This document shows, piece by piece, positions 1 to 16,271 of a stretch of DNA of 64,000 nt. The position numbers and the translations under genes were made by a program. Below the pieces are notes generated by a model. It saw nothing but the letters and a program-made list of their open reading frames with translations. It did not search any database and was not told the DNA's origin. How positions within the stretch are numbered: the stretch's first letter is position 1; each line of letters begins with the position of its first letter. The DNA comes from Desulfocapsa sp. (GTDB lineage: Bacteria > Desulfobacterota > Desulfobulbia > Desulfobulbales > Desulfocapsaceae), in assembly GCA_013792135.1 (NCBI GenBank), contig VMSP01000124.1, positions 16,480 to 80,479 on the forward strand. The letters run 5' to 3'.

Positions 1-540
1 CAATTTGGGTGAGTCGGAAGAGTGGGGTGAATGGCAGACGCTGCAGCCGTCAGCAGCTACGGGTCCATGAACAAATTTGCCACCAGTGATTTTTTTATCG
101 TGGCATCTTAAGCACAGAGCAGGGCCTGCACCTTTGAGTTGGAACTTATTGGCGGATTGGTGTGGATCGTGGCAACCTGTGCATTTTCCCTCTTTAACCG
201 GTTTATGCACAACCGAACCGTTGTTTAATTTGTCATGGCACTCGTAACAAAGAGATTCAACACTTTTAATCGGTTGAAATATGTGCTGGTCCTTTTTATC
301 CTGCTTATGGCAGAAGGAACAGTCGCCTGTGGCCACAGGCCCGTGGACAAACTTGTCTTTTCCCATGCCAGTGTGGCATTCAGAGGTAGCGCATGACTGT
401 CCTGCCTTTATCGATACGTTGCTGGATTTATCCTTTGCAGCACATGCCTCCAGTGCAAAAAAACTTAAAATACAGATAAAAGGGCACACCTTTAGCCATG
501 TTGACAATAGGTGTTTCTTCTTTCCTTTGTTTGTGTTCAT
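1..540 (-). CDS. Multihaem c-type cytochrome, partial (N-terminal 180 aa; C-terminus lies beyond the left window edge)
   Basis: Absent from the ORF track because it has no stop inside the window. Minus-strand translation from the ATG at 540 (RBS GGAGAGAGGA about 5 nt upstream) reads MNTNKGKKKHLLSTWLKVCPFICILSFFALEACAAKDKSSN... and stays open for all 180 codons to nt 1. It is a clear paralogue of the 663..1097 product. Motifs: CSFCH, CYECH, CTGCH, CLRCH, CSVCH plus CATSECH (CX4CH). Confidence 0.75.
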   Translation of the reverse strand, partial: MNTNKGKKKHLLSTWLKVCPFICILSFFALEACAAKDKSSNVSIKAGQSCATSECHTGMGKDKFVHGPVATGDCSFCHKQDKKDQHIFQPIKSVESLCYECHDKLNNGSVVHKPVKEGKCTGCHDPHQSANKFQLKGAGPALCLRCHDKKITGGKFVHGPVAADGCSVCHSPHSSDSPKL

Positions 541-662
541 ACGTTTCCTCTCTCCTGTTTGTAGGGAAGTTACCTCTGTTATGCTCCTGTTAGAGGCATA
601 CATTGTCGTCTATATCTTACAAAATTAACAGATCATGCTACAATTCTTACTAACGATTAGCC

Positions 663-1097
663 TCAACCAAGCCCGCCAGTTTGAACCTCTTTGAGCTGGA
701 ACTGGTTGGCAGATTGGTGAGGATCGTGGCATTTTGTGCACTTGCCGTCTGTAACCGGCTTATGCACTCCTACGCTGGTATTTAATTTTTCATGACACTC
801 GTAACAGAGTGCTTCAACATTTTTGATCGGCTGAAATGTGTGCCGGTCTTTTTTGTCCTGCCTATGGCAAAAGGAACAGTCGCTTGTGGCCACAGGACCA
901 TGGACAAATTTGTCTTTTCCCATTGTAGGGTGGCATTCGGAGGTTACACATGACTGGCCGGTTTTTATCGTCACGTTGCTTGATTTATCCTTTGCCGCAT
1001 AAGCATCTAATGTAAAGCAACTTACAAGACAGATGAAAGGGAATAGCTTACGCCATGTTAACATTTTGTATTTTTTCTTTCCTTTGCCTTTGGTCAA
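663..1097 (-). CDS. Small periplasmic multihaem cytochrome c (3 CXXCH + 1 CX4CH)
   Basis: Signal peptide (LFPFICLVSCFTLDAYAA). Motifs: CVTSECH, CSFCH, CYECH, CTKCH. The TTG start at 1097 aligns with the ATG of the upstream paralogue; an alternative ATG lies at 1064. Confidence 0.85.
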   Translation of the reverse strand: MTKGKGKKKYKMLTWRKLFPFICLVSCFTLDAYAAKDKSSNVTIKTGQSCVTSECHPTMGKDKFVHGPVATSDCSFCHRQDKKDRHTFQPIKNVEALCYECHEKLNTSVGVHKPVTDGKCTKCHDPHQSANQFQLKEVQTGGLG

Positions 1098-1206
1098 CGC
1101 TCCCTCACTGTTTATAGTAGGTGTTTCCTCTGGAATACCCCTATTAGAGATACGTTGTATTATCTGTGTTTTACAAGATTACCGAGCATTCATGCTGCAG
1201 TTGTCA

Positions 1207-2961
1207 CTATCGATTACCACCACCACCAGTACCTGATGGAATATGATGAATGTGCCCGTGACATGTAAGCGAACAAGCAGGTGAAGTAGTAGTGGTTCCT
1301 GGAATAAATGTAGTAAAGTCGGTGACTTCGATTGAATTAAAGTTAATCAGGTTGGGGTAATTGGAGGAGCCGTGGGGGTCATGGCAGGTCGCACATGATA
1401 CTACATCATTATTAATGCCCCCTAATGCAAGATGACCACCATGACTAAAAATCTTAGCCTGACCTCCGTTCTCTAACAAATCCCCCCCCTCAATAATTGC
1501 CTGATCATGGCACTTGTAGCAGAGCTCATGATCGAAGGCATTATATGCAGTCCCCACGTCTTGGGTTTTATAATTTGCCACAAGCAGGTGTGGATAGATT
1601 GAACCGTGCGGCCCCTGTGCCCCGACTGTGGGATTATCAGATCCATGGCAGTCGGTGCAGTACATATTACTGTTTGGGATTCTGTAGATAGCTTTCAGAC
1701 TTGGTGTATAGGTGCTGCCTGTCTTCTGGATTACCGGATGAGAGGAACTGCTGATGTCGTTGTTGATGTAGTTGAATTCAAGCCGGGTGTCCAACTGATT
1801 GGAGTAGCGGACAATTTCAGGGACGTCTGTTACATTTTTGGTAGCAGCGGCATGGCACTTGAAACATATTTCGTAGAGATACTGGGCATTCTGGGTCATC
1901 ACTCCATCGGCAGTAATCCCCTGCACGCCAATATTCTTTCCGGAAACGTAGGGTGCTACCGCCGTGGTATTCTTCACCTGGTGGGGGTTGTGGCAGTCTT
2001 CGCACTCTACATGGTCACCCTTTACGACTCCAGCGGGCCCAAAATCCTCGGCGGCATCGTGCACATCGGCGTAATTGCCGACGGAATGACGATACGACTT
2101 GGTAAGTTCGCTTGCAATATCGCTTGTTATTGCGACATTACCACTATGGCAGACAAGACAGTTATCCTCTTCATTGCTTTGTTTCAGCAACCGTTGATGC
2201 ATGCCCGCGGTGTGGGGCCTATGGCAGTTACCACAACCGTTCTCTTTCACCGTGGTGTAAGTGCTATTTGGCCACGGGTCAGGGGCAGTGCCGTTCCATG
2301 TAAGATCAGAGGTGTCGTGGGTGCTTCCCTCCCAGTTGCTTTTGTTATGGCACTTGAGGCAGAGTGCCGAATATTGATTGGTCATCACCAGAAATTTCCC
2401 CAAGGCATCGTTATGAGGATCGTGACAGGCCGTGCACTGGAGTTGGCCGGTGCTATCAAGTTGAACTGATGATGTCAATGCCGAGGCATCAACAAGCTCA
2501 GTGTTTCCCGAAGTAATGCTGCTCTGATAGCTAAAGGAAACGGGATGGTCATCACTGAGGTCGGTTCCAAGCAAACTGCTCCGGCCAGCAAGAGTTAAGC
2601 TGAATGGTATCTCTGTCGGCCTGGAAAGGACTGCTCCCAGGGCGATGGTCCCGTCATGGCAGCTCAAGCAGAGTCTTGAGGCGCCGGTGGGCTGGCCAAC
2701 AGTGGCGGACAGAGTGGTACTTTTATAGGGGGTGTAGGTGACTGGATCCCTCCGATTCCACAGATAGGGGATATCCTGGCGGGCATGGTGGGGAGTATGG
2801 CAGAAGATACACACCTCGCTTTCTCCTGTCGCCCTTATTTCATTCCCCCCGCTTGCGGAAAGATTATGCTTGCTGTCAAGAATGCTTTTCCCGTGGGCGA
2901 CTGCTCCCTGGCCAAGCAGCATTGCGGTGATCAAGATTAAAGTGTTTACTCTTTTCTTCAT
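1207..2961 (-). CDS. Secreted multihaem cytochrome c, about 12 haems (11 CXXCH + 1 CX3CH)
   Basis: Signal peptide MKKRVNTLILITAMLLGQGAVAHG. Motifs: CIFCH, CLSCH, CTACH, CLKCH, CGNCH, CLVCH, CEDCH, CFKCH, CTDCH, CYKCH, CATCH, CSLTCH. Repeated C..CHDPH/NPH pattern typical of paired-CXXCH cytochromes. 4-nt overlap with the upstream NHL gene. Confidence 0.9.
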   Translation of the reverse strand: MKKRVNTLILITAMLLGQGAVAHGKSILDSKHNLSASGGNEIRATGESEVCIFCHTPHHARQDIPYLWNRRDPVTYTPYKSTTLSATVGQPTGASRLCLSCHDGTIALGAVLSRPTEIPFSLTLAGRSSLLGTDLSDDHPVSFSYQSSITSGNTELVDASALTSSVQLDSTGQLQCTACHDPHNDALGKFLVMTNQYSALCLKCHNKSNWEGSTHDTSDLTWNGTAPDPWPNSTYTTVKENGCGNCHRPHTAGMHQRLLKQSNEEDNCLVCHSGNVAITSDIASELTKSYRHSVGNYADVHDAAEDFGPAGVVKGDHVECEDCHNPHQVKNTTAVAPYVSGKNIGVQGITADGVMTQNAQYLYEICFKCHAAATKNVTDVPEIVRYSNQLDTRLEFNYINNDISSSSHPVIQKTGSTYTPSLKAIYRIPNSNMYCTDCHGSDNPTVGAQGPHGSIYPHLLVANYKTQDVGTAYNAFDHELCYKCHDQAIIEGGDLLENGGQAKIFSHGGHLALGGINNDVVSCATCHDPHGSSNYPNLINFNSIEVTDFTTFIPGTTTTSPACSLTCHGHIHHIPSGTGGGGNR

Positions 2962-4040
2962 GGCAGCGGCTTGCCCTCTTTGAGATACTGGAAGATTTGA
3001 ACCCGTTTGTTATAGGAATCAGCGACATAGATTTTGTCATTCTGGTCAATCCATAACCCGGCCGGCATCCAGAACTCACCGTAGTCCTGGCCTGATCTGC
3101 CAAAGTCCATAAGCAGTTGCCCTGTTTTGTCAAAGATCTGGATGTTGTCAAAGAGGGCATCAGCCACATAAATGTTGCCGTCACTGTCGCTGGCGATACC
3201 GCGGGGCCGGGAAAAATGACCGGGACTGTCACCGGAGCTGCCAAATGTCCTCTGGAACTGTCCTTGGGCGGAAAAAATTTGAATTCGGAAGTTAAGGGCA
3301 TCGGTAATAAGAAGGGTGCCATCGCCGGTAACAGCAATATTGGTGGGGTTATTGAATTGTCCGGTTTCCACTCCCTTGCTACCAAATGTTCCCTTCAATT
3401 GGTGGTTGTCGAGATCAAATCTGAAGACCTGAGCCAGTTTTGTATCGACCACGAGCAGTTCATTGTTTGTTTGATTGATAGCTATACCGGTTGGCCGTTG
3501 AAAGAGGCCCTCGCCAATGGTTATTGGCGAGATGTCATCGGCGCCGTTAAAGACCTTGATAATATTATCCTTGGAGTCTGTAACGTAAATTGGGCCGCTC
3601 TTATCAACAGCAATACCAATAGGAGAAGTCATGGGGAGGTCATCAGCAGGTAAAACGGAGAATTCCCCGGCTGTCGTATCAAAGAGCTGAACCCTGCGCA
3701 GATAGGTGTCCACGACATACATTCTGCCGGCTCTATCCACCGTCACTCCATAGGGTGCTACCAGGGTATCATCTTCCTTGCCGATAACAAAATTCCAGAA
3801 GCGCATCAAAGCCCCTGGGGTGATCTGGAAATCTTCCGGTTTGGAGATGCTGCTGATAAAACGGATTCTTGGTTTTTCTCCACCTGTGGGCCAAACCAGA
3901 TCGACCGGTGGCACCACTGGTTCGATATTCGGGGACATACAGCCATAAAGCCCGAGAACAACAACGAGCAACAAGGATATGCGGCTGGCCCTGTGAGGGA
4001 AATGGTTTTTGCTCATTATTTTAATCAATATCTTTATCAT
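2958..4040 (-). CDS. NHL-repeat six-bladed beta-propeller lipoprotein
   Basis: Lipobox-like LGLYGC. Six NHL-type blades, e.g. GVTVDRAGRMYVVDTYLRRVQLFD, PTNIAVTGDGTLLITDALNFRIQIFS, PRGIASDSDGNIYVADALFDNIQIFD, AGLWIDQNDKIYVADSYNKRVQIFQ. Confidence 0.9.
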   Translation of the reverse strand: MIKILIKIMSKNHFPHRASRISLLLVVVLGLYGCMSPNIEPVVPPVDLVWPTGGEKPRIRFISSISKPEDFQITPGALMRFWNFVIGKEDDTLVAPYGVTVDRAGRMYVVDTYLRRVQLFDTTAGEFSVLPADDLPMTSPIGIAVDKSGPIYVTDSKDNIIKVFNGADDISPITIGEGLFQRPTGIAINQTNNELLVVDTKLAQVFRFDLDNHQLKGTFGSKGVETGQFNNPTNIAVTGDGTLLITDALNFRIQIFSAQGQFQRTFGSSGDSPGHFSRPRGIASDSDGNIYVADALFDNIQIFDKTGQLLMDFGRSGQDYGEFWMPAGLWIDQNDKIYVADSYNKRVQIFQYLKEGKPLP

Positions 4041-4049
4041 AGGTCAAGC

Positions 4050-6128
4050 CTACCACATAAAGCGGATGATTTCAAAACGAGCCAGTTGTTCTGTTCGCTG
4101 ATTGTCGGTCAGACTGTAATTTTGGTCGGTGAATTCATAGCTGAGGCGCGCCGTCCAGATGCGGTAGCGGAACTCAAGGCCTGCCTTGATGCCGTTATTT
4201 TCGGTTGCCTCAAAATCTCCCTGGCTGTTGTCATAATAGCCCTCGACACGAAGTTTACACCATCTGCTTAACAACCAGTCAAAGGAACTGACTCCGCCGT
4301 AAAAATCCCTGGTCTCATCATGGTCTTTATAATCGGTTTGACCAAAATAACCTGTCAGAGAAAAGTAAAACTGTCCCTGAGGCCTGTAGTACAGCGTTTC
4401 CCGTATTTCTCGCCGGGTATAGGATGAGGTGGATTGGCGGTTGTTGTCCTCGTAGCTGAGCGAGGTGTTTGACCAACCGATATCATAGCGGATATTGGCA
4501 TTATGAACGGTGTCATCAACCAGGTTCTGCGGCGCCTGACCAGAGAGGATATCCTGGGTAACCCGCAGGAAATTGTAGGAAAAAAGCCAGTCATGCCAGA
4601 GGTCGAAATTGATTCCGTAGTTCTCCGTCAATAAGGCATCATCATATTCTGCATCTCGAAGGTAACGGTAGTTGACTGAAACGATTTGCCCATCTGATAT
4701 CGCACCAAAAGGCAGTCGGCTTATCCGTACATAATCGTTGATTTTTTCAACTGTGTAATCAATGTTTACAATATAAACGATGGTCCCGGCACTGTTGGTG
4801 ACAACAATGGAGTCAAGGTTGACGTTGTAATGATTCAGATAAATTTCTTCATTGAAGCCCAGACTATGGGTCTCATTGGTCACCAGGGCATCAGAAGAGG
4901 TGAATCCGCTCCGGTCAGTGTAGAGGTAGTCCCAGCCGGTATACAAGCCCAGCGTCGTCCAGGAAAGGGGACGTTTGTAGGAAAAATTAAGGAAGCCATC
5001 GTATGCGTTCTCGTTGCCGGTGGAGTAATTATTCTGATTTGCTCTGCTGCCGACATTGGTGGTCAGGTTTTCATAAAGCAGGTGCGTCAAACTGGCCTCA
5101 ATATCTGTCATGTCGGAATTAAAATCACCTGATTCCTGCCGGTTGTGGGTAACTGAGTAATTAGACTGTAAATTTGGGCGATGGCGCCAGTTCAGGTGTT
5201 CTCTGAAATTGATATTTTGCGTATCATACCAGGTTGAGTCCTGGTTCCTGTAAGTCATGGACGAGTTCAAATTGATATTGTTGTCTTCAGTGATCTTATA
5301 GTTGTTGAACAGACTACTACTAAGGGTTTTTATTTGAGTCTCAAAATCATCGCTGTTTCTCTGGTCATCACTGTAGGTGGAGGTCAGCCAGGTATTGCTT
5401 GTTTCGGTCTGATGCCGGGATGACAGATTAAATTCATCGTGGATGTCTTGGGAGATATAGAAACCGGTCTGGTCGGTCTTATTGTGGGAATATCCAAAAG
5501 TGGTGGGCAGAACTTTATATTTGAGTTGTCCAGTGGCGCCATAGGAGTCGGTAATAGTTTCGGTGTTACCTGAAAAGGCTGCCCATACAGGTTCCTGCAG
5601 ACGGTTGGCAAAGATGTTGAGTGTATAGGGCTTTGGCTCAAGAAAGGTCGCTGTCATGGAATAATCCGGTGTAAAGGCACTCGTCCGGGTTGTATCCCCT
5701 GGGCTCATTTCTTCTTTAGTCTGGGTCAATTCTGGTGCAATCATCAGCGTGTATTGCATAAGTGCAGGGTGGTAGACCCAACCTGCTGTTTTGATCTCTA
5801 TTTGCTCTTTAAATTTATGGCTGGTGTCCGTGTCTGTTATACCGTTTGATGTTTGGGATTCATTTTGAAATTCGTATATGAGTTTCCCGCCCATGGTAGG
5901 CCGTTTGATAAAATAATATTGGCTTTGCTGTCCGTCTTTCGTCTGACTCGTCTTCCATTTACCAAGGAGTGCTGCGACCGCAGATGTCTCCCGGGCAACA
6001 TCATCATCTGGCACTGATTGTTTTTCTTCAGCCTGAAGTTCTTCAGTACCGACAAAAAAAAGCGTCAATGATGCAAGGGCAAGCAGGCCTAACGGAAAAA
6101 AATTTAAGCAAGAGTCTGAAATTTTCAT
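4050..6128 (-). CDS. Large outer-membrane beta-barrel protein (candidate porin of a porin-cytochrome conduit)
   Basis: Signal peptide (FFPLGLLALASLTLFFVGTEELQA). 692 aa rich in N/S/T/Y/D with alternating hydrophobic pattern. C-terminus ...RFEIIRFMW has aromatic/hydrophobic residues at -1/-3/-5 (OMP signature). Flanked by lipoprotein cytochrome and NHL genes. No family-level match recognised by eye. Confidence 0.7.
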   Translation of the reverse strand: MKISDSCLNFFPLGLLALASLTLFFVGTEELQAEEKQSVPDDDVARETSAVAALLGKWKTSQTKDGQQSQYYFIKRPTMGGKLIYEFQNESQTSNGITDTDTSHKFKEQIEIKTAGWVYHPALMQYTLMIAPELTQTKEEMSPGDTTRTSAFTPDYSMTATFLEPKPYTLNIFANRLQEPVWAAFSGNTETITDSYGATGQLKYKVLPTTFGYSHNKTDQTGFYISQDIHDEFNLSSRHQTETSNTWLTSTYSDDQRNSDDFETQIKTLSSSLFNNYKITEDNNINLNSSMTYRNQDSTWYDTQNINFREHLNWRHRPNLQSNYSVTHNRQESGDFNSDMTDIEASLTHLLYENLTTNVGSRANQNNYSTGNENAYDGFLNFSYKRPLSWTTLGLYTGWDYLYTDRSGFTSSDALVTNETHSLGFNEEIYLNHYNVNLDSIVVTNSAGTIVYIVNIDYTVEKINDYVRISRLPFGAISDGQIVSVNYRYLRDAEYDDALLTENYGINFDLWHDWLFSYNFLRVTQDILSGQAPQNLVDDTVHNANIRYDIGWSNTSLSYEDNNRQSTSSYTRREIRETLYYRPQGQFYFSLTGYFGQTDYKDHDETRDFYGGVSSFDWLLSRWCKLRVEGYYDNSQGDFEATENNGIKAGLEFRYRIWTARLSYEFTDQNYSLTDNQRTEQLARFEIIRFMW

Positions 6129-6299
6129 AAAAAGGTGGTGAGACAGCGAGCTTTGTTAATGTTTTTAAGTCATTGGAGAAGATATCTTCCAGATAAGCCG
6201 TCGTTCAAAAGCATCTGCTCATTCAATGTTATTAACGCAAAGTGGCCGTAATGAAATGGCTTAAGAGTATGTGTTATTTTTTAAGGCCCCTAAACATCT

Positions 6300-7007
6300 T
6301 CACCTGTCAGGTACCTGGTCTCCAGGGACGAGTACCACAGGCATCTTGATTTCTTTGTACTCTTTTGTCAAAATGTTTTTGTCGATACCCATATGCGGGT
6401 TGTGACAGGAGAGACACTCTTCCCCTTTTTGATGAACGGATGTTGCCAGGAACTTCCCTTCCTTGTGACAGGGGAGGCAGATGATGGACGGCGCCTGACG
6501 CAGGGTGTTCGCGATATTACTCTGGTGCGGATCGTGGCATGACAGACAGTCTCCCTTTGCTACGGTGTTGTGCAGCCACAGATTGTCGGCCATGGCCCGT
6601 CTTGGGGTTTTATCTTTATGGCATTGGATGCAGAGCTCATTTTTTGGAAGGGTCAATTTTCCAGGCATGCCGCCGCCTGTTTTGAAAACATGAGGTGATG
6701 ATTTTTGAGCACCGGGAGTGCGGAATACACCTGTACTTTCATGACAGGGAGTGCATGTGCCTGCCACCCAAACCGGATGGGAAAACAGGGGCTTGGGGGC
6801 TGATGGAACTGGTTTTTTGGCAATATTGGCAGCAGGGGGAGGTGTCGCCGGCTCCTGGATCTCAGCAGCCGGCGCTGATTCCTCATTCAGGGGAGGAACA
6901 CCGGTAAAGAAGAAGTTGAGTGCCTGGTGCCTGGTTTGCGGCTCGCATCCGGTCAGGGAGGCTGTCAATAAGATTAGCATAACTATCTGAGCTGAACCCC
7001 TGACCAT
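6300..7007 (-). CDS. Pentahaem cytochrome c lipoprotein
   Basis: Lipobox LTASLTGC followed by a Pro/Ala-rich linker. Motifs: CTPCH, CIQCH, CLSCH, CLPCH, CLSCH. Confidence 0.9.
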   Translation of the reverse strand: MVRGSAQIVMLILLTASLTGCEPQTRHQALNFFFTGVPPLNEESAPAAEIQEPATPPPAANIAKKPVPSAPKPLFSHPVWVAGTCTPCHESTGVFRTPGAQKSSPHVFKTGGGMPGKLTLPKNELCIQCHKDKTPRRAMADNLWLHNTVAKGDCLSCHDPHQSNIANTLRQAPSIICLPCHKEGKFLATSVHQKGEECLSCHNPHMGIDKNILTKEYKEIKMPVVLVPGDQVPDR

Positions 7008-7054
7008 TTTATTGTCCTTTTTGCCAATTCATAATACAATCTTTCGCTGAAGGA

Positions 7055-8137
7055 CTATTTACCTGTCCAGTCACCAAAACCGTAGACATTGATTTTATTG
7101 GGCCCACTCAGATTGCAGACATAGATGAGATATTTCAGCTTGAAATACTTGTCGGCAAACTTATTGAAAAACTCAATGTTGTCATAATCGATATGGACCC
7201 CTGCCGGCAGGTACATATTGCCGGGACCGACTCCAGGGCCACCGAAAAATAAAAGCATCCTGGCTTTTTCGTCAAAAATCTGCGCATATTCAGAGGCAGC
7301 ATCGACACTATACAGATGTCCTTCCCGGTCAATATCCAGCCCCTTGGGCCGGGCCATACCACCGACATGGTCGCCGTGAAAGCCAAAAACTCTGACGAAC
7401 TTTCCCTCGGGATCGAATTGCTGGACCCTGAAATTAAAGGCGTCATTGACAAAGAGATTGCCTTGGTCGTCAACGGTGATATGGGTTGGTTTGTAGAGTT
7501 GTCCCTCTGCAGAGCCACCTTTACCAATATAGAGAAGTGGTTCTCCGGAATCTTTGTCGAGAACAACAATCTGATTTTTTTTTATGTCGCAGACAAAAAT
7601 GCGGTTTTCGTGCACGGCAACATCGACAGGTTTCTCAAACAATTCTTTGTTGCCATAGGCTCGGACAAAGTTATTTTTGGCATCAAAGACCACGATCTGT
7701 TGTCGATTCATGTCGGCCACATACTTGACATTGTCCCGGCTGACCCAGATGCCGGCAGGGGTACGGAGAGTGCCGAGGCCTTTGTCGTCCAGCTTTTTGA
7801 AACTCTTTGCGGCCAAGTCAAAAATGAGGATCTTGTTAATCTCTCTGTCGGTAATATAGATGTTCCCTGGTGATGAGCTCACATCATAGGGTCGTCCTAT
7901 GGTGGCGAAAGATACATTAGGTCCCAGGAGAAAGTTTTCCAGACCAGTTTGCTTGCTTCCCGTATCCTCTTCCGAGGAGAGGGTGGTGAGAAACTGCAGT
8001 CTGGGTTGTTCCGGCGGTTGAGGGTAGAAGACAGCTGGCGCTTTTTCTTCAACGTGTTGGGCGCAAGCACTGATAATGAAAAGACAGAGCAGAGTGTATA
8101 TCAGCTGCTTGATGATAAAGAGTTGAGTTTTCGGCAT
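7055..8137 (-). CDS. NHL-repeat six-bladed beta-propeller lipoprotein (paralogue 2)
   Basis: Lipobox-like LFIISAC. NHL blades, e.g. PTHITVDDQGNLFVNDAFNFRVQQFD, PKGLDIDREGHLYSVDAASEYAQIFD. Confidence 0.9.
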   Translation of the reverse strand: MPKTQLFIIKQLIYTLLCLFIISACAQHVEEKAPAVFYPQPPEQPRLQFLTTLSSEEDTGSKQTGLENFLLGPNVSFATIGRPYDVSSSPGNIYITDREINKILIFDLAAKSFKKLDDKGLGTLRTPAGIWVSRDNVKYVADMNRQQIVVFDAKNNFVRAYGNKELFEKPVDVAVHENRIFVCDIKKNQIVVLDKDSGEPLLYIGKGGSAEGQLYKPTHITVDDQGNLFVNDAFNFRVQQFDPEGKFVRVFGFHGDHVGGMARPKGLDIDREGHLYSVDAASEYAQIFDEKARMLLFFGGPGVGPGNMYLPAGVHIDYDNIEFFNKFADKYFKLKYLIYVCNLSGPNKINVYGFGDWTGK

Positions 8138-8300
8138 GGTAGTTTTTGATGGTTCCGCTAAAAAAATATGCTAAAAATATTTTACCTGCAAAGCGGCTAC
8201 AGTTTCAAAATTGAGCCCCGGCGAGGGGATGCCACTGTAACTGGACAGTTCCACCAATAAAGCAGTAAAATATTTTTGGTCGCATGTCATTAGTTTTTTT

Positions 8301-8348
8301 AAAAAAAGCCGCCCCATACATTGAAAATGTCTTAGGGTATGGGGCGGC
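8301..8348 (-). terminator. Rho-independent terminator downstream of the 8382..9026 cytochrome gene
   Basis: Perfect 12-bp GC-rich stem (gccgccccatac 8308-8319 / gtatggggcggc 8337-8348). On the minus strand it is followed by T7 (plus-strand A7 at 8301-8307). Confidence 0.75.
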
Positions 8349-8381
8349 GACAGCAGGCAGAGGGCGAATCAGGCCATGCTC

Positions 8382-9026
8382 TTATTTGGTGTGACAGTTA
8401 ATACAAAGGGCCGATCCGAAATTGGTGCCATTGAGCAGTCCCGCTCCCAGAGCAGTATTATGTTTGTTATGGACATCATGGCAGGTCGCGCACTCCATCA
8501 TGCCGGCAAACAATGGCAGTTTCTGTACTCCCACAGTTCCGTCAGCGGAGGGGGTCACAAGGCCGACGACTCCGCTACCGGTAAGGGTATCTCTAACGAC
8601 AAGCTCGTTATTATAGAGGAACGAAACAGGATGGTCGTTGCCCAAGTTGTTCGTGCCGTCTCCGAGATTGGCGGCCCCGCTGATATAAGTAGTGCCTGGA
8701 TGGTCGGTATAGGCGTCAAGCGCTACAGTACCGTCGTGACAGGAAAGACAGAACTTGGATAAAGAAGCGGGTTGACCCGGAATTGCAATATCAAAAGTTG
8801 GACTGTCGTACAGAGTATAGGACGCTGTAGTCGGATTATGATTCCACAGGAGGTCGCCTGTGAGGTTTTGATTGTTATGCGGGGCGTGACACGGCATGCA
8901 GATCTGACCATTAGCCCATGATGTTAGGTGGAAATCATGGGCTGACCCAGTGATGACTGCAGGAGCTGTCGAGCAGATACCTAGACCACCAATAAGTGTT
9001 AATGATGCAACCAGTAGTTTTTTCAT
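8382..9026 (-). CDS. Tetrahaem cytochrome c (paralogue of the N-terminal part of the 1207..2961 product)
   Basis: The likely start is the internal ATG giving the signal peptide MKKLLVASLTLIGGLGICSTAPA; the ORF extends to 9086. Motifs: CMPCH, CLSCH, CATCH, CINCH. It shares FCLSCHDGTVALDA / NDHPVSFLY with the 584-aa cytochrome (LCLSCHDGTIALGA / DDHPVSFSY). Confidence 0.85.
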   Translation of the reverse strand: MKKLLVASLTLIGGLGICSTAPAVITGSAHDFHLTSWANGQICMPCHAPHNNQNLTGDLLWNHNPTTASYTLYDSPTFDIAIPGQPASLSKFCLSCHDGTVALDAYTDHPGTTYISGAANLGDGTNNLGNDHPVSFLYNNELVVRDTLTGSGVVGLVTPSADGTVGVQKLPLFAGMMECATCHDVHNKHNTALGAGLLNGTNFGSALCINCHTK

Positions 9027-9736
9027 TTCTCTTCCCCTTTCCCTGAATATTTTAAAATACTTCCATTGGCTGGACGTAAGGATCACCTCCGCAGTTCTTC
9101 AGCAAAGTCGAACAGAGGAGATAAAAATTTATTTTTTAATGCGTCCCTGAATATCCATTCTCCATGTACCTTTGTCACGCAACCCAGCCATGCGCCTTGC
9201 CAGCAACTAACCCTCTAAAATCACAACGACAACACAACAGTTTTCGCAGGCAAATGAAAAAAATCACAGACAAAACCTTAAACGGACCTTACTCTCTCCC
9301 TGCATTTCTTTTATTTAATAGTACTGTAGCCCTCATGAACAAAAAAGAGGGTTTTCCCTATTTCTGAGATGCTAAAAACCTCTGTTTTTTTTGTCAGGAT
9401 GCAGAATCCGTCCTGACTGTGTACAGAGACGTTTGTGAGGCGGTTAAGAAAATCGTTAGTCACGTCTCGTCTAATTATAGTGCTGGATTTCGAATCTTCT
9501 CTACATATCCAGAAACCATTATAATCTATATTACTGCTGTCTCATAAAAGATCAATCATAAATGGCCTAGATGAACCTGTTTGACCGTCGCCCGTTCAAC
9601 GAACGATTTAAATCTCCATGCAATCAACATGTGTTTTCTCCAAAGAAATTGATCTGGAAAAATTTATAAGTCAGCAGTGATCCCATTACCAGACTTGATA
9701 GCTTCACCTGACAGCCAAAGTGACATAGCGCTGGAC

Positions 9737-9776
9737 AAAAAAAGCCGAACTGCCTCTTTGATATGGCAGCCCGGCT
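9737..9776 (-). terminator. Candidate rho-independent terminator of the upstream cytochrome operon
   Basis: Minus strand reads agccgggctgcc-atatcaaaga-ggcagttcggct followed by T7-8 (plus-strand A-run 9737-9743). Confidence 0.55.
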
Positions 9777-9911
9777 AATTCACTTCTGAATCCCGAGGCA
9801 TTCCGTCCCTGCTTCACAACAGGTTTGGCTTTATTTCATATTGGTGAATGGAAAAATCTTGTCACATTCTTACTACACATTATGATATCTTTTTAATATA
9901 TAAAGTTTTCT

Positions 9912-9963
9912 TACTAACAGCAATAAAAAATGAATTGAAATTCATTTTTTATTGCTGTTAGTA
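9912..9963. repeat. Near-perfect 23-25-bp AT-rich inverted repeat (hairpin) 37 nt past the stop of the 18-haem cytochrome gene
   Basis: ctaacagcaataaaaaatgaatt (9914-9936), 2-nt loop, aattcattttttattgctgttag (9939-9961). Two extra flanking pairs. Confidence 0.8.
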
Positions 9964-9999
9964 CCGTCTCGTATCAATATTATTGCACTGCTGTCTATA

Positions 10000-12237
10000 T
10001 CAAGGTGCCGGCATGGGTTTTCTTTTTTTGCTGTCATGGTAATATTTAAATCGAAACAGCGAATCAAGGCCGTGACAATCCTTGCATATCATATTGTAGG
10101 TCTGTATCCGTAAAAAGCTGTTGGTGGCCTTGCCTTCGAGATTATTGCCGGTGCCCTGTGATGCCTGTTTCGGATCCCATTGATGGACATCATGGCATGA
10201 GGAGCAGGCAATATCGCCAACAGTTTTGAAGGCCCCTGTGGCATTGTCAAACAGGGGAAAGTAGTTTGCCTGGTCCTTGCTGTTTCTTCCTGGATTGGCA
10301 ATCAGTTGTTTTTCCGGGTGAGTGGATACTTTGGGCACCTTATTGCGACCCGATCCTGTCTCACTATGGCAGCTGTTACACATCCTGTCCATGATACCTT
10401 TACCGATGCCGTAGTCACGAGCCCAGAGGCGCACCTTGTTTTTCCCATTATGGATGATATGGCAGGCGCCGCAGACTCCGGATTCTGCTGGTGTCTGGCC
10501 CTGCATGTTTTTGGCTTTCGGAGCGGTTATGGTGAGATCGTGGTCTGTCTTTTCTACATATGCCTTTGCCCCATGGCAATTACCACACAAGACGGGTCTT
10601 GGTGCGACCTCAAGACGGAGAAAGCTGTTTTTGGCGTTGCCTTCTGGATTGTTACCGCCATGATCTTCTGGTTTTTGAGGATTCCATTGATGGGGATTGT
10701 GACAGGTAAGACAGGCGATCACACCGTTACCAGCCTTTTTTCCCTGCTTGTCATAGAGGGGAAGCTTGGTATTGATACCCTTTTTGGCAGGATCAATATC
10801 AACGGGATGGGAATGACCCCCGATCACCTTTTTATCGGCCTCCCCTTTGCTCTTATGACAGGTGAGGCAGAGGTCCTGGGCCGGAAAGGTACTCTTGCCA
10901 GGAACATTTCTGGCCCACAAATTCTCTGTCTGCGCTCCGTGCACCAGATGGCAAACGCCGCACACGTCAGACTCCAGAGCCGACTGGCCCCGATCATTTT
11001 TCGTTGTGGGTCCCGTATTCCGCAGATCATGATCACTCCCGACAATGCGGGCCTGTTGAACATGGCATTGCCTGCACAGCCTCTCCGGCTGACCACCTTC
11101 TACCCGGAGAAAACTGGAACTTGGAGGCGTCATCTTCGCCTGTCTGTCTGTTCCTTTCTGGTGCGGGTCATGGCAGGTGAGGCAGGTTAAGAGTGCCTCC
11201 TTTGACTTGAAGGGGATCTGTTTTCCCTTGAGATCATAAACTGGCAAATCAGGCGTCATCCCCTTGTCTTTGAGTGAGATATTGACGGGATGAGCATACC
11301 CCTTGAGGAGTTTTTCAGGGGCCAGTCCCTGCCTGTTATGGCAACTTATACAGAGGTCCTGGATCCTGTTTTCGCTCTTGTCTGGAAGCTCTCTTGCCCA
11401 GAGTGCCACTTTCTTTGCCCCGTGTACCAAATGACAGGCACCGCATATTCCTGACTTTTCCGGGTTCTGTCCCTTGCTGTTTTTTGAATTTGCTGCTGAG
11501 CGTCGCAGGTCATGCCCGGTGTTCAGGACGCCGCCCTTCTCCTCATGACAGTCGAGGCAGAGCTGGGCCGAATCGCGGTTGTTGTCCACGAGGAAATTGT
11601 CATACGGTGAACCATGGACCGTATGACAGGTCTGGCAGATGAGTTGCTTCTTGTCAGAGCCCTCGACACTGCCTCGGCTGAGCATCTTCTCGGGGATTGG
11701 ACGTTTGATTGTGCCAATGGGATGGTTACCGGCAGCAGGGCCGCCTTCCTTGCCCTTGTGACACATCATGCACATGGAAGAGTTATCGTTTGAGGCACGG
11801 ATAAAGACCGCCCTCTCTATCCCCATCTCGCTGGATACGCCGTGGGCGGTATGGCAGGTAAAACACTGCATGTTTCCCTTATCGTCCAGGGGGAAGATGG
11901 CCGGGATTTCCATGCCTGGGGGCGGAGGTTTGTTGATGGGATGACGATGATCGTTGTAGACCTTTCCTCTTGAGTCAGCCACACTGCCGTCATGGCAGGA
12001 AAAGCACATTTCCTGTGAGGCGACAGCCTTTGTTGTCTCCTCATAGGGAACCAGGTCTGTTCCCTTGCCATCGATGAAAAAGGTATCGATCCATCGATAG
12101 TGACAGATCGCACACTCTTTGGCTGAGTTCGGGTTGCGGGGAGGGGGCTGATCGGCGAGAGAGGACGTATGGTGCAAGAATATGGTGCTGAAAAGGAGGA
12201 AAAGGAGGAAAAGGAGGTAGGTTGAGGATCTGTTCAT
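10000..12237 (-). CDS. 18-haem c-type cytochrome with three tandem four-haem modules
   Basis: The likely start ATG at 12237 gives the signal peptide MNRSSTYLLFLLFLLFSTIFLHHTSSLA and avoids overlap with the upstream gene; the ORF extends to 12348. 18 CXXCH motifs counted. Three homologous ~165-aa modules each have the pattern C(G)xCHxxHG...LWAR...C.xCH...HP...C..CH(D/N)xHQ...SFLR...C..CH. Confidence 0.9.
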   Translation of the reverse strand: MNRSSTYLLFLLFLLFSTIFLHHTSSLADQPPPRNPNSAKECAICHYRWIDTFFIDGKGTDLVPYEETTKAVASQEMCFSCHDGSVADSRGKVYNDHRHPINKPPPPGMEIPAIFPLDDKGNMQCFTCHTAHGVSSEMGIERAVFIRASNDNSSMCMMCHKGKEGGPAAGNHPIGTIKRPIPEKMLSRGSVEGSDKKQLICQTCHTVHGSPYDNFLVDNNRDSAQLCLDCHEEKGGVLNTGHDLRRSAANSKNSKGQNPEKSGICGACHLVHGAKKVALWARELPDKSENRIQDLCISCHNRQGLAPEKLLKGYAHPVNISLKDKGMTPDLPVYDLKGKQIPFKSKEALLTCLTCHDPHQKGTDRQAKMTPPSSSFLRVEGGQPERLCRQCHVQQARIVGSDHDLRNTGPTTKNDRGQSALESDVCGVCHLVHGAQTENLWARNVPGKSTFPAQDLCLTCHKSKGEADKKVIGGHSHPVDIDPAKKGINTKLPLYDKQGKKAGNGVIACLTCHNPHQWNPQKPEDHGGNNPEGNAKNSFLRLEVAPRPVLCGNCHGAKAYVEKTDHDLTITAPKAKNMQGQTPAESGVCGACHIIHNGKNKVRLWARDYGIGKGIMDRMCNSCHSETGSGRNKVPKVSTHPEKQLIANPGRNSKDQANYFPLFDNATGAFKTVGDIACSSCHDVHQWDPKQASQGTGNNLEGKATNSFLRIQTYNMICKDCHGLDSLFRFKYYHDSKKRKPMPAP

Positions 12238-12265
12238 AGCAAACTGTTTGTTTGGTGATGCACTA

Positions 12266-13249
12266 TTATTGTGCATTGTCCAGGCTGAAGACGCTGAGTC
12301 GACCTGGAAGCATTTCCACAACATAGAGGCGCATTGAGTCGTCAACAAAGAGTCCCACCGGGGTAGTAAATTTTCTCACCCCACCGCTTACAGGATCACC
12401 GAGGACAGAATGAAATGTTCCTGTGATATTAAAGAGCTGAATCACTCCCATGTAGCTGTCGCTGACATAGGCGAGGCCTTTTTTATCAACAGTGACCCCT
12501 TTGGGCCTGAAGAATTGTCCCTTTTCCACACCCCAGCCTCCGACAAAGGTAACAAACTTGCCCTCTGTGTTCACCACCTGTACCCTGGTGTTGATCACAT
12601 CGACGATGTAGAGATCTTTGTTATGATGCAGATGCATGAGAAAGGGATAACGGAACTCCCACTTCTCAGCCCCTGGTTTTCCATAGCTGTTGACAAGCTT
12701 TTTTGAGCCAATATCAAATTTGAGAATACGGTGATTATTGTTGTCTGCCACAAAGAACCACTTGCCGGAATCATTTACGGCCACATCCGTTGGATCTGCC
12801 TTGTTACCGTTATCGTCCGGAACCGGGATCTCAGATATAAAATCTCCCTTGGCTGTGAATATCTGGATCCTGTGGTTTCTGGAATCGGCAACATAGATCC
12901 TGCCTGATTCGTCAATATCCATACCCAGGGGAAAGGCAAATTCGCCGGGTCCGGTTCCTGGGCGTCCGATGGTGAAAAGATAACTTCCTGATGGAGAAAA
13001 TGCCTGTATCCTGCCATTGACTCCGTCAACCACATAGATGGTACCATTCTTGGCAACGGCCACATCGCTTGGCTGGTTAAATGTACCCTTTATATCAAAG
13101 AGGTGTTTTGCCATGGTCAGTTCGAGTCCATAGGCAGCCGAGCCATAGGCAGTGAGCCAGAGGAGGATGGCAACGGAAAATATGCTGCTCCGTTGCCATC
13201 TGCACTTCACGAGGATTGTACGCCATCCAAGCATAATATCTTTATTCAC
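12266..13249 (-). CDS. NHL-repeat six-bladed beta-propeller protein (paralogue 3)
   Basis: Signal/anchor SIFSVAILLWLTAYGSAAYG. Blades, e.g. PSDVAVAKNGTIYVVDGVNGRIQAFS, PLGMDIDESGRIYVADSRNHRIQIFT, PKGVTVDKKGLAYVSDSYMGVIQLFN. Confidence 0.9.
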   Translation of the reverse strand: MNKDIMLGWRTILVKCRWQRSSIFSVAILLWLTAYGSAAYGLELTMAKHLFDIKGTFNQPSDVAVAKNGTIYVVDGVNGRIQAFSPSGSYLFTIGRPGTGPGEFAFPLGMDIDESGRIYVADSRNHRIQIFTAKGDFISEIPVPDDNGNKADPTDVAVNDSGKWFFVADNNNHRILKFDIGSKKLVNSYGKPGAEKWEFRYPFLMHLHHNKDLYIVDVINTRVQVVNTEGKFVTFVGGWGVEKGQFFRPKGVTVDKKGLAYVSDSYMGVIQLFNITGTFHSVLGDPVSGGVRKFTTPVGLFVDDSMRLYVVEMLPGRLSVFSLDNAQ

Positions 13250-13262
13250 TTGTTCCAGGTGG

Positions 13263-14210
13263 TTAGTGCTGTTTTGGCGGAAGTTCCGGCTGCTGTTTCG
13301 GCTGTAGTTCCGACTGCTGTTTCAGCAGTGGTTCAGGCTGCAGTTGCGGCAAGGCCGGTTTTTCACCAGGACTCAACATTTTCGGCATATGAAATTCTGT
13401 ATAGTTTCTTATCATTCCCACCACCTCTGTACTGGTGATAGAGTCAATCCGTGTCTGGGGATACCCAAGCTCAGCCAGGGGGAGGAGCGGTTTATTCTTT
13501 GTATGGCATGCTTCACAGGTCACCGGGGTCTTACTGATAATCTTATGGATAAGCTTCTTTGCCTTGGACTTCTGGCCTTCGCTCAAGACCTTTTCATTGT
13601 TCTTGTAATCAAGAGCAAATTGTATCTTTTCTTCACTGTCGATACGGACGAGTTTACCGTTCTCATCACGAACAAAGGGGATGATTTTTGCCTGATAGGT
13701 TCCTGGCGCAGCCCCATTAACCGGGCTGTCAACAATATCGCCGGTTTTGCGGTCATACCATTTATAGACGTTTGTCTTATCCTTTTCTTCGAGTTTGACA
13801 TGGCAGGTCTGACAGGCGACAAAGAAGGCGTGCATATTCAAAAAAGCACGAACATCCTTTACTTTATCGTGCGGCATGTCACCGTGGCAGGATCGGCAAT
13901 AGGACCTGTTATCCGGGCCTATATCAAAACCGATATGGTGAAAATGGCCCTCTATTCGTTGCTCTTCGAGCACACGGTAGCCGAGATAGTGCTTAACCCG
14001 ATCTTCGCTTTCAAGGATCATCGTATCAAATGTCTGTTTTCCTTTCTCCTTTTTGCCTGCTTCTCCCTCATGCTGAATGGAGACATCTCCCTTCCGGGCG
14101 TGGTATTCATGGATAAGATGGGCAAAGGTCAAGTTCCAGATGAGCACACCGAAAAAAACAACCAGCCCCATAAAAGCAAGGATGTATAACTTGGTAAAAA
14201 AACATTTCAT
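13263..14210 (-). CDS. Membrane-anchored trihaem cytochrome c with Pro/Gln-rich C-terminal tail
   Basis: N-terminal TM helix LYILAFMGLVVFFGVLIWNLTF. Motifs: CRSCH, CQTCH, CEACH. Tail PQLQPEPLLKQQSELQPKQQPELPPKQH. ATGA overlap with the upstream cytochrome b gene. Confidence 0.8.
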   Translation of the reverse strand: MKCFFTKLYILAFMGLVVFFGVLIWNLTFAHLIHEYHARKGDVSIQHEGEAGKKEKGKQTFDTMILESEDRVKHYLGYRVLEEQRIEGHFHHIGFDIGPDNRSYCRSCHGDMPHDKVKDVRAFLNMHAFFVACQTCHVKLEEKDKTNVYKWYDRKTGDIVDSPVNGAAPGTYQAKIIPFVRDENGKLVRIDSEEKIQFALDYKNNEKVLSEGQKSKAKKLIHKIISKTPVTCEACHTKNKPLLPLAELGYPQTRIDSITSTEVVGMIRNYTEFHMPKMLSPGEKPALPQLQPEPLLKQQSELQPKQQPELPPKQH

Positions 14211-15109
14211 GAGCTGATCCCTCCCTGCTGCATGGTATCATTCGGCTGTTCGGCATCGGTAGTGGTTGATGGACTGTTTTCGTCCGATAACGGTTTACCA
14301 CAGAAGGGCTTGTGGCCACCATGAGGTGGGAGGATTTCATCCTCCAGTCCCTCTTGTTTCATTACCCTGACATAATGTTCATAGTGCTCTTCAGCCATCA
14401 AATCCTCTGGGAGATAACCCGTCAAAAAAACCGTGCCCATTGGGAAGACGGATGTGGAAAAATGGACATTGTACCAGTGCCATATAAAGAGAAAAAGGGC
14501 GGCCAGCAGTGCCTCGTCGCTGTGGGCTATCAGGCAGAGGTTGATGAGCTCCCCTGGTATGACCTGGGTGGCAAGCACTTTGTTCCAGATAACGAGGCCG
14601 GTAAGACCAATGACAAACATACCCCAGAACGGTGCCCAGTAATCAAATTTTTCCTTCCAGGTAAATTCATCTCCATCAGGCCGTACAGTGGTAAAATAGA
14701 GGAGATACTTCATCAGCCCTATGATATCATAGGCGTCCTTCATGTTGGGGATCATCGGCTGCTTAACCAGTATCATGGAGACTCGACCAACACTCATCTT
14801 TCCCTCTTTTTTGAGGGGTAAAATCTGTTTAGTCACGATTTGGCTGATAACACGGATGACATGGTACACAAAGAGGATGAGCATAATGGCACCGGTTATT
14901 TTATGTATTGTCGGCGCCATCTTACTTCCACCGAAAATAGTATAAAGATACGGGGCCCAGCTTGCATCGCTGAATTTGAGAGGCATCCCTGTCAGTACCA
15001 GGATAATGACCGTTAGCGCCAGGATGATGTGCTGGATCCTTTGGTCCAGGTCGAATCTGAAAAAATATTTCTTTCCGTCTTTTCTTTTTATAGCTGGATA
15101 TCGTTTCAT
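14207..15109 (-). CDS. Integral-membrane b-type cytochrome (FdnI/HydC/PhsC-like dihaem cytochrome b)
   Basis: N-terminus KKYFFRFDLDQRIQHIILALTVIILVLTGMPLKF is typical of the Ni/Fe-hydrogenase / formate dehydrogenase cytochrome b family. At least 4 TM helices carry conserved His (IHKITGAIMLILFVYHVI, IAHSDEALLAALFLFIWHWYNVH). Translationally coupled to both flanking cytochrome c genes. Confidence 0.8.
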   Translation of the reverse strand: MKRYPAIKRKDGKKYFFRFDLDQRIQHIILALTVIILVLTGMPLKFSDASWAPYLYTIFGGSKMAPTIHKITGAIMLILFVYHVIRVISQIVTKQILPLKKEGKMSVGRVSMILVKQPMIPNMKDAYDIIGLMKYLLYFTTVRPDGDEFTWKEKFDYWAPFWGMFVIGLTGLVIWNKVLATQVIPGELINLCLIAHSDEALLAALFLFIWHWYNVHFSTSVFPMGTVFLTGYLPEDLMAEEHYEHYVRVMKQEGLEDEILPPHGGHKPFCGKPLSDENSPSTTTDAEQPNDTMQQGGISS

Positions 15110-16170: not shown

Positions 16171-16271
16171 CTCCTCTCCTTTTTTTGTAACACTTTCGTA
16201 AGATCTACTCCGTTATGTAAACAACTGTACTGGTATAGGTTTCGCAGTGGTGCGAAGTTATTGTTCAATTT

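Follow-up and report, generated by a model that had tools for sequence, protein, structure and literature searches.

The 64,000-nt stretch of DNA analysed here (the window; positions 16,480 to 80,479 of contig VMSP01000124.1, GenBank assembly GCA_013792135.1, Desulfocapsa sp.) encodes a large outer-membrane beta-barrel protein amid multihaem cytochromes and NHL beta-propeller proteins. We describe this gene module and propose a role for the barrel in an OmcE-type cytochrome-filament module. All genes of the module are located on the minus strand. The first encodes an OmcE-like tetrahaem cytochrome, a putative filament subunit (9026-8382), and is followed by a gene for a six-bladed beta-propeller lipoprotein of 360 amino acids (aa), NHL_b (8137-7055; Pfam NHL, E 1.5e-10, and DUF5128), with the lipobox-like motif ISAC. 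Next come a pentahaem lipoprotein cytochrome of 235 aa (7007-6300) with five CxxCH motifs, and the barrel itself (6128-4050), which is 692 aa long and contains no haem motif. The module continues with a second six-bladed propeller of 360 aa, NHL_a (4040-2958; Pfam NHL, E 4.6e-36), whose LYGC motif marks it as a lipoprotein in this genome, and with a secreted 12-haem cytochrome of 584 aa (2961-1207), which has 11 CxxCH motifs, one CX3CH motif and a signal peptide but no lipobox.

A preliminary description of this region had named the five genes from NHL_b to the 12-haem cytochrome, as an outer-membrane barrel set among multihaem cytochromes and NHL lipoproteins. Their order and nature are borne out by the open reading frames (ORFs), motifs and Pfam matches, as are the lipobox LTGC of the pentahaem protein (residues 18-21) and the Pro/Ala-rich linker that follows it. 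The junctions, given as gaps of 4-50 nt or overlaps, measure 47, 171, 9 and -4 nt from NHL_b down to the 12-haem gene, the last being the overlap between the NHL_a stop and the 12-haem start. The description thus holds for three of them but not for the junction between the pentahaem and barrel genes, where 171 nt remain even with the most upstream start possible for the barrel (6128). The range given, 2958-8137, does not include the 12-haem gene named in the title of that description. The module runs past these coordinates on both sides and the OmcE-like gene upstream (9086/9026-8382) had been left out; its inclusion changes the interpretation of the module.

To describe the conservation of this arrangement we used 58 non-redundant barrel homologues, classifying the neighboring ORFs by phmmer against the window proteins and counting assessable loci only. 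These loci are from Desulfobacterota, Nitrospirota, Alpha-, Beta- and Gammaproteobacteria, Nitrospinota, Binatota and Deferribacteres. The module order is OmcE-like cytochrome, NHL propeller, pentahaem lipoprotein, barrel, NHL propeller and 11+1-haem cytochrome. Upstream of the barrel we found the OmcE-like tetrahaem gene in 41/42 loci, the NHL_b type in 50/51 and, directly adjacent, the pentahaem type in 52/56; downstream, the NHL_a type is present in 52/53 loci and the cytochrome with 11+1 motifs in 46/47. With each partner present in 93-98% of the assessable loci, the arrangement is far beyond chance, and barrels with just 24-28% identity retain the same neighbors. The barrel is the least conserved component across phyla: in non-Desulfobulbales loci its median identity to the window protein is 30%, against 36-37% for the OmcE-like and pentahaem proteins and 47-50% for the propellers and the 12-haem cytochrome.

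The barrel family is large. An exhaustive profile search returned 2,821 clusters (at 50% identity) with E<=1e-3, of which 1,260 have E<=1e-30. Genome and contig look-ups place members in Desulfocapsaceae and other Desulfobulbales, Desulfobacterales, Desulfurivibrio and Desulfoarculaceae, as well as in Nitrospirota (Thermodesulfovibrionia), Hydrogenophilales, Burkholderiaceae, Rubrivivax, Gallionella, several Gammaproteobacteria, Rhodospirillales, Nitrospinota, Binatota, Deferribacteres and Verrucomicrobiota. Isolates with a family member are Desulfocapsa sulfexigens DSM 10523 (L001), which carries the entire locus, Desulfosediminicola flagellatus IMCC35005 and Desulforhopalus sp. IMCC35007. 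In three further loci (L091, L094 and L095), relatives of the 12-haem cytochrome adjoin other haem-free proteins of 550-820 aa, which the hidden Markov model (HMM) of the barrel family does not detect. Of these 12-haem relatives, those in L091 and L094 carry 10+1 motifs, whereas that in L095 is cut by the contig end.

The OmcE-like protein matches the filament subunit OmcE of Geobacter sulfurreducens along its full length in a phmmer search (PDB 7TFS_A, E 4.1e-21), residues 23-234 aligning to residues 13-232, and OmcE of Desulfuromonas soudanensis (9YUQ_N, E 2.1e-15). Residue 1 of the latter aligns to residue 21 of the ORF, which extends to a GTG at 9086. As this position coincides with ATG 9026, and a purine-rich, Shine-Dalgarno-like stretch is found just before it, ATG 9026 rather than GTG 9086 is the probable start. 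We aligned 52 sequences, namely 48 locus ORFs, the window protein, both solved OmcE structures and the N-terminal unit of the 12-haem protein. Conservation is complete (100%) for the four CxxCH motifs and, outside them, for precisely four histidines (H50, H70, H152 and H206), which is the ligand set that would be expected for four bis-His haems. The barrel gene lies 2.2 kb downstream of the OmcE-like gene. Tandem OmcE-like genes occur in two other loci: three copies in L095 and two in L063, the latter directly after resB and ccsA.

A second protein of the module is homologous to OmcE. The family profile of the 12-haem cytochrome matches 7TFS_A across the entire OmcE chain (E 3.3e-37), and also the 16-chain entry 9YUQ, which represents an OmcE bundle of D. 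soudanensis (bioRxiv 10.1101/2025.10.22.684050). For the window protein alone, phmmer aligns residues 3-207 to full-length 7TFS_A (E 1.2e-27) and to 9YUQ_N (E 1.1e-27). The protein thus begins with an OmcE-like tetrahaem unit (residues 3-207), and its other eight haem sites lie beyond this unit; its family profile also matches OcwA (6I5B, E 1.9e-5), and MtrC/MtrF-domain Pfam matches are found in the window protein (E 4.5e-15). The family has 15 conserved histidines outside the haem motifs for 12 haems, so the protein could donate ligands to partners. Its OmcE-like unit keeps the histidine of the motif KH(N/D)L, which, by analogy with OmcS, is taken to cross-coordinate the open haem of a neighboring subunit.

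The barrel was modelled with AF2 (AlphaFold2) from a 48-sequence alignment of its family (A1). The model is all-beta with a mean predicted local distance difference test score (pLDDT) of 84 and a predicted template modelling score (pTM) of 0.68. It contains 30 long strands of 11-22 residues between residues 78 and 689, with connections of just 2-7 residues on both sides, which answers the call of the preliminary description for a strand count. The N-terminus resembles a signal peptide, and the C-terminal residue is W, the last residue being aromatic in 44/54 homologues. A conserved small beta element of ~60 residues is inserted at ~424-494 (window ~4650-4860), between strands 18 and 19, and it is also the most conserved stretch of the family (VVTN..GTIVY..NIDY.V..I...VRISR.PFG.I.DGQ.V.VSYRY). 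It may plug the lumen or form a knob on the periplasmic or the outer side. By standard barrel geometry, 28-30 strands would give a backbone diameter of about 5 nm, wider than that of the 26-strand MtrB. Without partners, the modelled barrel would leave its lumen open to a width of about 4 nm. Since no long loops are present to close the barrel, this lumen would have to be filled by partner proteins.

Searches of the barrel against Pfam and NCBIfam gave no family at E<=0.01, and at E<=10 only three short, irrelevant matches (Spo16_C, Harpin and RecX), none of them to a barrel family; selected homologues likewise gave no barrel family at E<=10. The family profile (A1) found no match among PDB sequences either. 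Foldseek comparison of the model with the PDB returned only generic large barrels with template modelling scores (TM-scores) of 0.23-0.38, including Cir, LptD, MtrB (rank 11), the 30-strand SlpA and TonB-dependent receptors. The TM-score to MtrB (6R2Q_B) is 0.34, which is not better than to LptD or TonB-dependent receptors. The absence of a recognizable relation to MtrB, and of an N-terminal CXXC (the only two cysteines are at residues 7 and 624), is as first described. The suggestion of an independent barrel family stands insofar as the protein is unlike MtrB, but the family is not unrecognized: some homologues carry the precomputed Pfam accession PF27730, and comparable barrels are already in the literature (see below). 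As PF27730 is missing from the Pfam release we searched, the family seems to have been curated recently.

Two homologues bear other names in their source records. The protein UWK_00564 of Desulfocapsa sulfexigens (P0028) is named a PEP-CTERM system-associated outer membrane protein (TIGR03016), and a Nitrospirae homologue (P0090) a TonB-dependent receptor. Neither name was reproduced by hmmscan at E<=10, and the window barrel likewise has no TIGR03016 or TonB-receptor family match at that threshold. These source names, together with the TonB-dependent receptors among the top Foldseek matches, would suit a general exporter or receptor that lies beside the cytochromes by coincidence. Such a coincidence is highly improbable and close to refuted, given that the fold matches reach TM-scores of just 0.25-0.38, that no polysaccharide genes are nearby, and that the synteny with cytochromes is near-invariant across phyla. 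The sequence and fold searches also gave no confident match to a characterized non-redox family.

About a quarter of the listed barrel homologues are longer, with 840-935 aa and an N-terminal extension (among them P0045-P0047, P0049, P0053, P0054, P0058, P0064, P0072, P0074 and P0081). In the three that were checked (P0072, P0074 and P0081), this extension contains tetratricopeptide repeats (TPR), and the TPR domain is predicted to be periplasmic. An N-terminal TPR domain joined to a barrel is an architecture known from the polymer-export porins BcsC and PgaA.

The pentahaem protein matches Pfam Paired_CXXCH_1 (E 7e-21) and, weakly, MtrA (6R2Q_A, E 3.7e-4); a lipobox-like motif is present in 38/54 of its homologues. 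This similarity, and the position of the gene directly upstream of the barrel in 52 of the 56 loci, speak for a pure MtrCAB-type conduit, in which the barrel would permanently sheathe a haem chain made up of the pentahaem protein and/or the eight C-terminal haems of the 12-haem protein and have no role in export or anchoring, the OmcE-like proteins being monomeric surface cytochromes. The MtrC/MtrF-domain matches of the 12-haem protein fit such a conduit, as does a barrel larger than MtrB and devoid of occluding loops, and the authors who described the Uet cluster (see below) proposed the same model for its barrel UetC. We regard this conduit as a real possibility but a less probable one. A lumen of ~4 nm is far wider than a single haem chain requires, and the module contains no decahaem cytochrome of the MtrA/DmsE family (TIGR03508 scores of 29-77 bits against a cut-off of 192). 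A conduit also leaves unexplained the near-invariant OmcE-type gene (41/42) and OmcE-like domain (46/47), the two propellers, and the TPR domain of many homologues. The MtrB-like sheath put forward in the preliminary description is therefore partly supported: with ~30 strands against 26 in MtrB the lumen is not too small, but the OmcE homologues point to a filament role. This role goes beyond a simple sheath and may replace it; the sheath is retained as an alternative reading or as one element of the mechanism.

Apart from the generic propeller, Pfam, NCBIfam and PDB searches revealed no signature of enzymatic activity or binding in the NHL proteins; NHL_a matches the NHL domain of TRIM71 (E 1e-56). 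A lipobox-like motif is found in 44/53 NHL_b homologues. All three NHL genes in the window directly precede a cytochrome gene on the minus strand, with an overlap or a gap of <=47 nt: 12266-13249 before 10000-12348 (18 haems), 7055-8137 before 6300-7007 (5 haems) and 2958-4040 before 1207-2961 (12 haems). The repeated arrangement points to the NHL-cytochrome pair as a functional unit that is used more than once, comparable to DFE_0463/0464 of Desulfovibrio ferrophilus.

Such pairs can also be read in another way, with the barrel as part of an LptDE- or SusCD-type pair that serves mainly to insert or display the propellers at the cell surface, where they would bind a mineral, a sulfur compound or a partner cell and the cytochromes would merely deliver electrons. 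The propellers are, with the 12-haem protein, the best conserved components (median 47-50% versus 30% for the barrel), LptD is among the top, though weak, fold matches, and in D. ferrophilus NHL proteins accompany outer-membrane cytochromes with no barrel recognized (PMC5815863; PMC9769857). We nevertheless consider surface display of the propellers unlikely. The same D. ferrophilus clusters show NHL-cytochrome pairs that go without a recognized barrel, the LptD fold matches are generic (TM-scores of 0.33-0.37), and a binding signature is lacking in the NHL sequences.

Since the nanowire subunit OmcE has two homologues among the cytochromes of the module, a role in the export, anchoring or wiring of a filament is proposed. 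On sequence and model evidence, the barrel is rather probably the outer-membrane component of an OmcE-type cytochrome-filament module. The filament platform is supported by the twofold OmcE homology, a wide barrel that needs a plug, the TPR fusions and the fixed synteny. In the mechanism we propose, the OmcE-like protein would mature in the periplasm, cross the outer membrane via the ~30-strand barrel and/or polymerize on top of it. The 12-haem cytochrome would act as an adaptor, its N-terminal OmcE-like unit joining the filament by the same subunit interface and its eight further haems carrying electrons. The pentahaem lipoprotein would feed electrons from the periplasmic side, and the two NHL propellers may serve as scaffold, plug or chaperone. 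A cytochrome b561 and the 3-, 6+2-, 7- and 18-haem cytochromes encoded upstream may link the module to the quinone pool.

The analysis itself shows the gene content, the haem counts, the OmcE homology with its fully conserved haem ligands, the predicted fold of the barrel and the near-invariant synteny; in this scheme we infer the localization of the components, the formation of filaments, the occupant of the lumen and the direction of electron flow. Sequence cannot decide whether electrons leave the cell for Fe(III) or a partner cell or are taken up from a solid donor. The Geobacter literature favors electron export. The authors of the Uet study favor electron uptake (bioRxiv 10.1101/2022.05.06.490989).

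Several points weigh against the filament platform. OmcE homology is no proof of polymerization, since OmcE-like tetrahaem cytochromes are very common, and what cytochrome filaments do for the cell is itself a matter of dispute (PMC11077965; PMC13194489). The literature contains no experimental studies of this barrel family or of barrels in related clusters. The model of the 12-haem protein, from a 46-sequence alignment, reaches a pLDDT of only 39, and the lipobox of NHL_a is found in just 23/54 homologues. For the comparison made below, no homology is detectable between the window barrel family (A1) and the ~750-aa outer-membrane protein encoded in Geobacter-type omcE loci (A4): hhalign gives a probability of 3% (E 0.015), and the A1 HMM detects 0/13 of the Geobacter-type proteins at E<=1e-3. 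The Geobacter analogy hence rests on context and not on barrel ancestry.

A more specific and more tentative suggestion concerns the 11+1-haem cytochrome. It could supply the subunit that is missing at the base or the tip of an OmcE-type nanowire, with its N-terminal unit docking on the filament end and its eight-haem tail reaching through or onto the barrel; we put this forward as a conjecture. The Desulfuromonadia omcE operons encode no candidate for an OmcE-like tip protein (bioRxiv 10.1101/2025.10.22.684050), whereas the window module does encode one. If the suggestion is true, a single module would both anchor and charge the filament. It would also represent a second, independent outer-membrane platform for cytochrome filaments, as the barrel family shows no sequence relationship to the barrel of the Geobacter omcE loci, and one that is commoner in nature (2,821 clusters).

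The exit, anchoring site and electron supply of nanowires are acknowledged open questions (PMC12307469; bioRxiv 10.1101/2025.10.22.684050). The module described here is compact, strongly conserved and very widespread, occurring in sulfur-cycling Desulfobacterota, Nitrospirota, lineages of iron oxidizers and others, including cultured strains, and it offers concrete targets outside Geobacter. An obvious candidate for joining the filament to the cell is its OmcE-fusion dodecahaem cytochrome. In sediments and groundwater, filament-type extracellular electron transfer could be far commoner than Geobacter-centred work implies. Even if the module is merely a porin-cytochrome conduit, it would still be among the most widespread such conduits without experimental study.

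Further cytochrome genes precede the module on the same strand. They encode a 7-haem cytochrome (17201-16272), a 6+2-haem cytochrome (16170-15109), cytochrome b561 (15109-14207), a 3-haem cytochrome (14210-13263), the third NHL propeller (13249-12266) and the 18-haem cytochrome (12348-10000). This upstream block is conserved in loci of Desulfobulbales and Desulfobacterales (L001, L006-L011, L017, L020, L027 and L030) and was not found beside the module in loci of Nitrospirota or Proteobacteria. A perfect long palindromic hairpin (9910-9965), which also gives spurious matches to miRNA precursors, lies directly after the stop of the 18-haem gene; it is probably a terminator or processing site parting two transcription units. 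A scan of 500-10200 for promoters and terminators revealed no clear difference from shuffled sequence (23 versus 14.8 +/- 4.1 and 11 versus 9.6 +/- 3.6, respectively).

The 913-nt gap upstream of the OmcE-like gene contains a c-di-GMP-I (cyclic di-GMP) riboswitch aptamer (9839-9762, minus strand; Rfam RF01051, 57.5 bits against a gathering threshold of 35, E 4e-9). As read from the sequence, it is followed by a terminator-like stem overlapping its 3' half and by a U7 run (~9775-9735). The OmcE-like gene may be its target, which is uncertain because 736 nt separate the riboswitch from the start codon. In a Desulfobacteraceae locus (L015), the clan relative c-di-GMP-I-GGC (6406-6498) takes the corresponding place and precedes the OmcE-like gene by 172 nt. 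No such element is present in 11 other window-type loci or in seven Geobacter-type loci. Two-component genes adjoin the module as well. In the window these encode a CHASE4 histidine kinase and a LuxR-type regulator (17656-20291), and in loci of Nitrospirota and Gallionella (L003, L005 and L054) a HAMP kinase and a sigma-54 activator.

Downstream of the 12-haem gene and again on the minus strand, two more cytochromes are encoded: a small 3+1-haem protein of 144 aa (1097-663), with three CxxCH motifs and one CX4CH motif, and a larger one (540-1), which is cut by the window start so that only its N-terminal 180 residues are present. The small protein is identical to the N-terminus of the larger one at 99/136 residues (73%), and the pair looks like a tandem partial duplication. 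Full-length homologues of the larger protein have 454-487 aa and 13+2 haem motifs (in L001, L004 and L006-L014). Its relatives include the 9+2-haem cytochrome found in Geobacter-type omcE loci.

Among the known systems, MtrCAB, MtoAB and PioAB share with the module a large barrel that is encoded with multihaem cytochromes, one of which is a lipoprotein. The window barrel differs from MtrB in its number of strands (~30 versus 26), the lack of an N-terminal CXXC and the low TM-score (0.34), and it has no match to MtrB_PioB (Pfam) or TIGR03509 even at E<=10. The Mtr complexes, in turn, have no NHL propellers and no OmcE-like proteins, unlike the window module.

Desulfovibrio ferrophilus IS5 encodes NHL beta-propeller genes interleaved with multihaem cytochromes in two clusters (DFE_0448-0451 and DFE_0461-0465), which are induced under electron-donor limitation and in which no porin was recognized (PMC5815863; PMC9769857). 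Compared by description, the likeness consists of the NHL gene followed by a cytochrome predicted to be extracellular, in a sulfur-cycling member of the Desulfobacterota.

The osc cluster of G. sulfurreducens is similar in concept. As described in a citing paper (PMC13194489, on Shen et al. 2025), OscE, OscF and OscG, whose genes accompany omcS, are proposed to export the filament along a porin-like route, so that a filament cytochrome is likewise combined with paralogous cytochromes (OmcT and OscC) and proposed secretion proteins. According to the same description, its subunit is the hexahaem OmcS and not OmcE.

The Uet cluster of Ca. Tenderia electrophaga contains the tetrahaem cytochrome UetA, the barrel UetC, which has 28 strands and a pore modelled at about 5 nm, the NHL proteins UetH and UetI and, as last gene directly after an NHL gene, the 11-haem UetJ (bioRxiv 10.1101/2022.05.06.490989). 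UetJ and an associated porin have also been reported for Gallionella and Leptothrix, and the putative UetJ group of Gallionellaceae has 11-12 motifs (PMC10734462; PMC13386937), resembling the 11+1 motifs of the window cytochrome. Window-type modules are themselves found in a metagenome-assembled genome of Gallionella (L054) and one of Rubrivivax (L031). The likeness is one of composition and haem counts only: each cluster combines a barrel (28 strands in UetC, ~30 in the window) with a tetrahaem cytochrome, two NHL proteins and an 11(+1)-haem cytochrome. The gene order is unlike that of the window, and the peptidyl-prolyl isomerase UetB, the trihaem c7 proteins UetD/E/G and the cupredoxin UetF have no counterpart domains in window genes 663-17201. 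In proteobacterial loci, the module is not followed by ccsAB/nrfG/bat, the genes found after uetJ. No match named Tenderia or Leptothrix emerged from searches with proteobacterial barrels and a Rubrivivax 12-haem protein as queries, and cluster look-ups added only names of Verrucomicrobiota, Desulfoarculaceae and Binatia.

The omcE clusters of Desulfuromonadia are also comparable. The smallest of them always contain two multihaem cytochromes, two beta-propeller lipoproteins, OmcE and a large beta-barrel, the latter described as a putative secretion pore or anchor, and OmcE homologues with a nearby porin occur in five phyla, including Nitrospirota and Pseudomonadota (bioRxiv 10.1101/2025.10.22.684050). 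This spread agrees with that of the window-type modules. We recovered Geobacter-type loci from metagenomes with the OmcE sequence taken from the PDB alignment (L065, L068, L073 and L077-L090). In L065, which has an OmcE 79% identical to 7TFS, and in 12 further loci the order is a 9+2-haem cytochrome, an 8-haem cytochrome, an NHL protein, OmcE, sometimes a second NHL protein, and a haem-free protein of 710-770 aa ending in Phe. Both types of loci share an OmcE-homologous tetrahaem subunit, with haem-ligand positions identical to those of 7TFS and 9YUQ, NHL beta-propeller lipoproteins, a large haem-free outer-membrane protein and further multihaem cytochromes, among them a cyt144-like cytochrome of the 9+2 type. 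In the window, the relative of the latter is the gene at 1097-663 with its larger paralogue cut by the window start, and the 8-haem partner type is seen only in relatives of the window locus (L001). The Geobacter-type loci, for their part, lack the pentahaem lipoprotein and the 11+1-haem cytochrome with an OmcE-like N-terminal unit.

Since the 2025 omcE preprint, the OmcS companion genes and the Uet cluster describe comparable sets, the kind of system is already known, and the window locus is most likely a new example of a recently recognized module for nanowire export and wiring rather than a wholly new system. Judged by sequence, it would be such a system in a second architecture, whose barrel is either unrelated to the Geobacter-type protein or diverged beyond recognition. 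What is noteworthy about this architecture is its sequence-unrelated barrel family, the great abundance of that family and the OmcE-fusion dodecahaem cytochrome.

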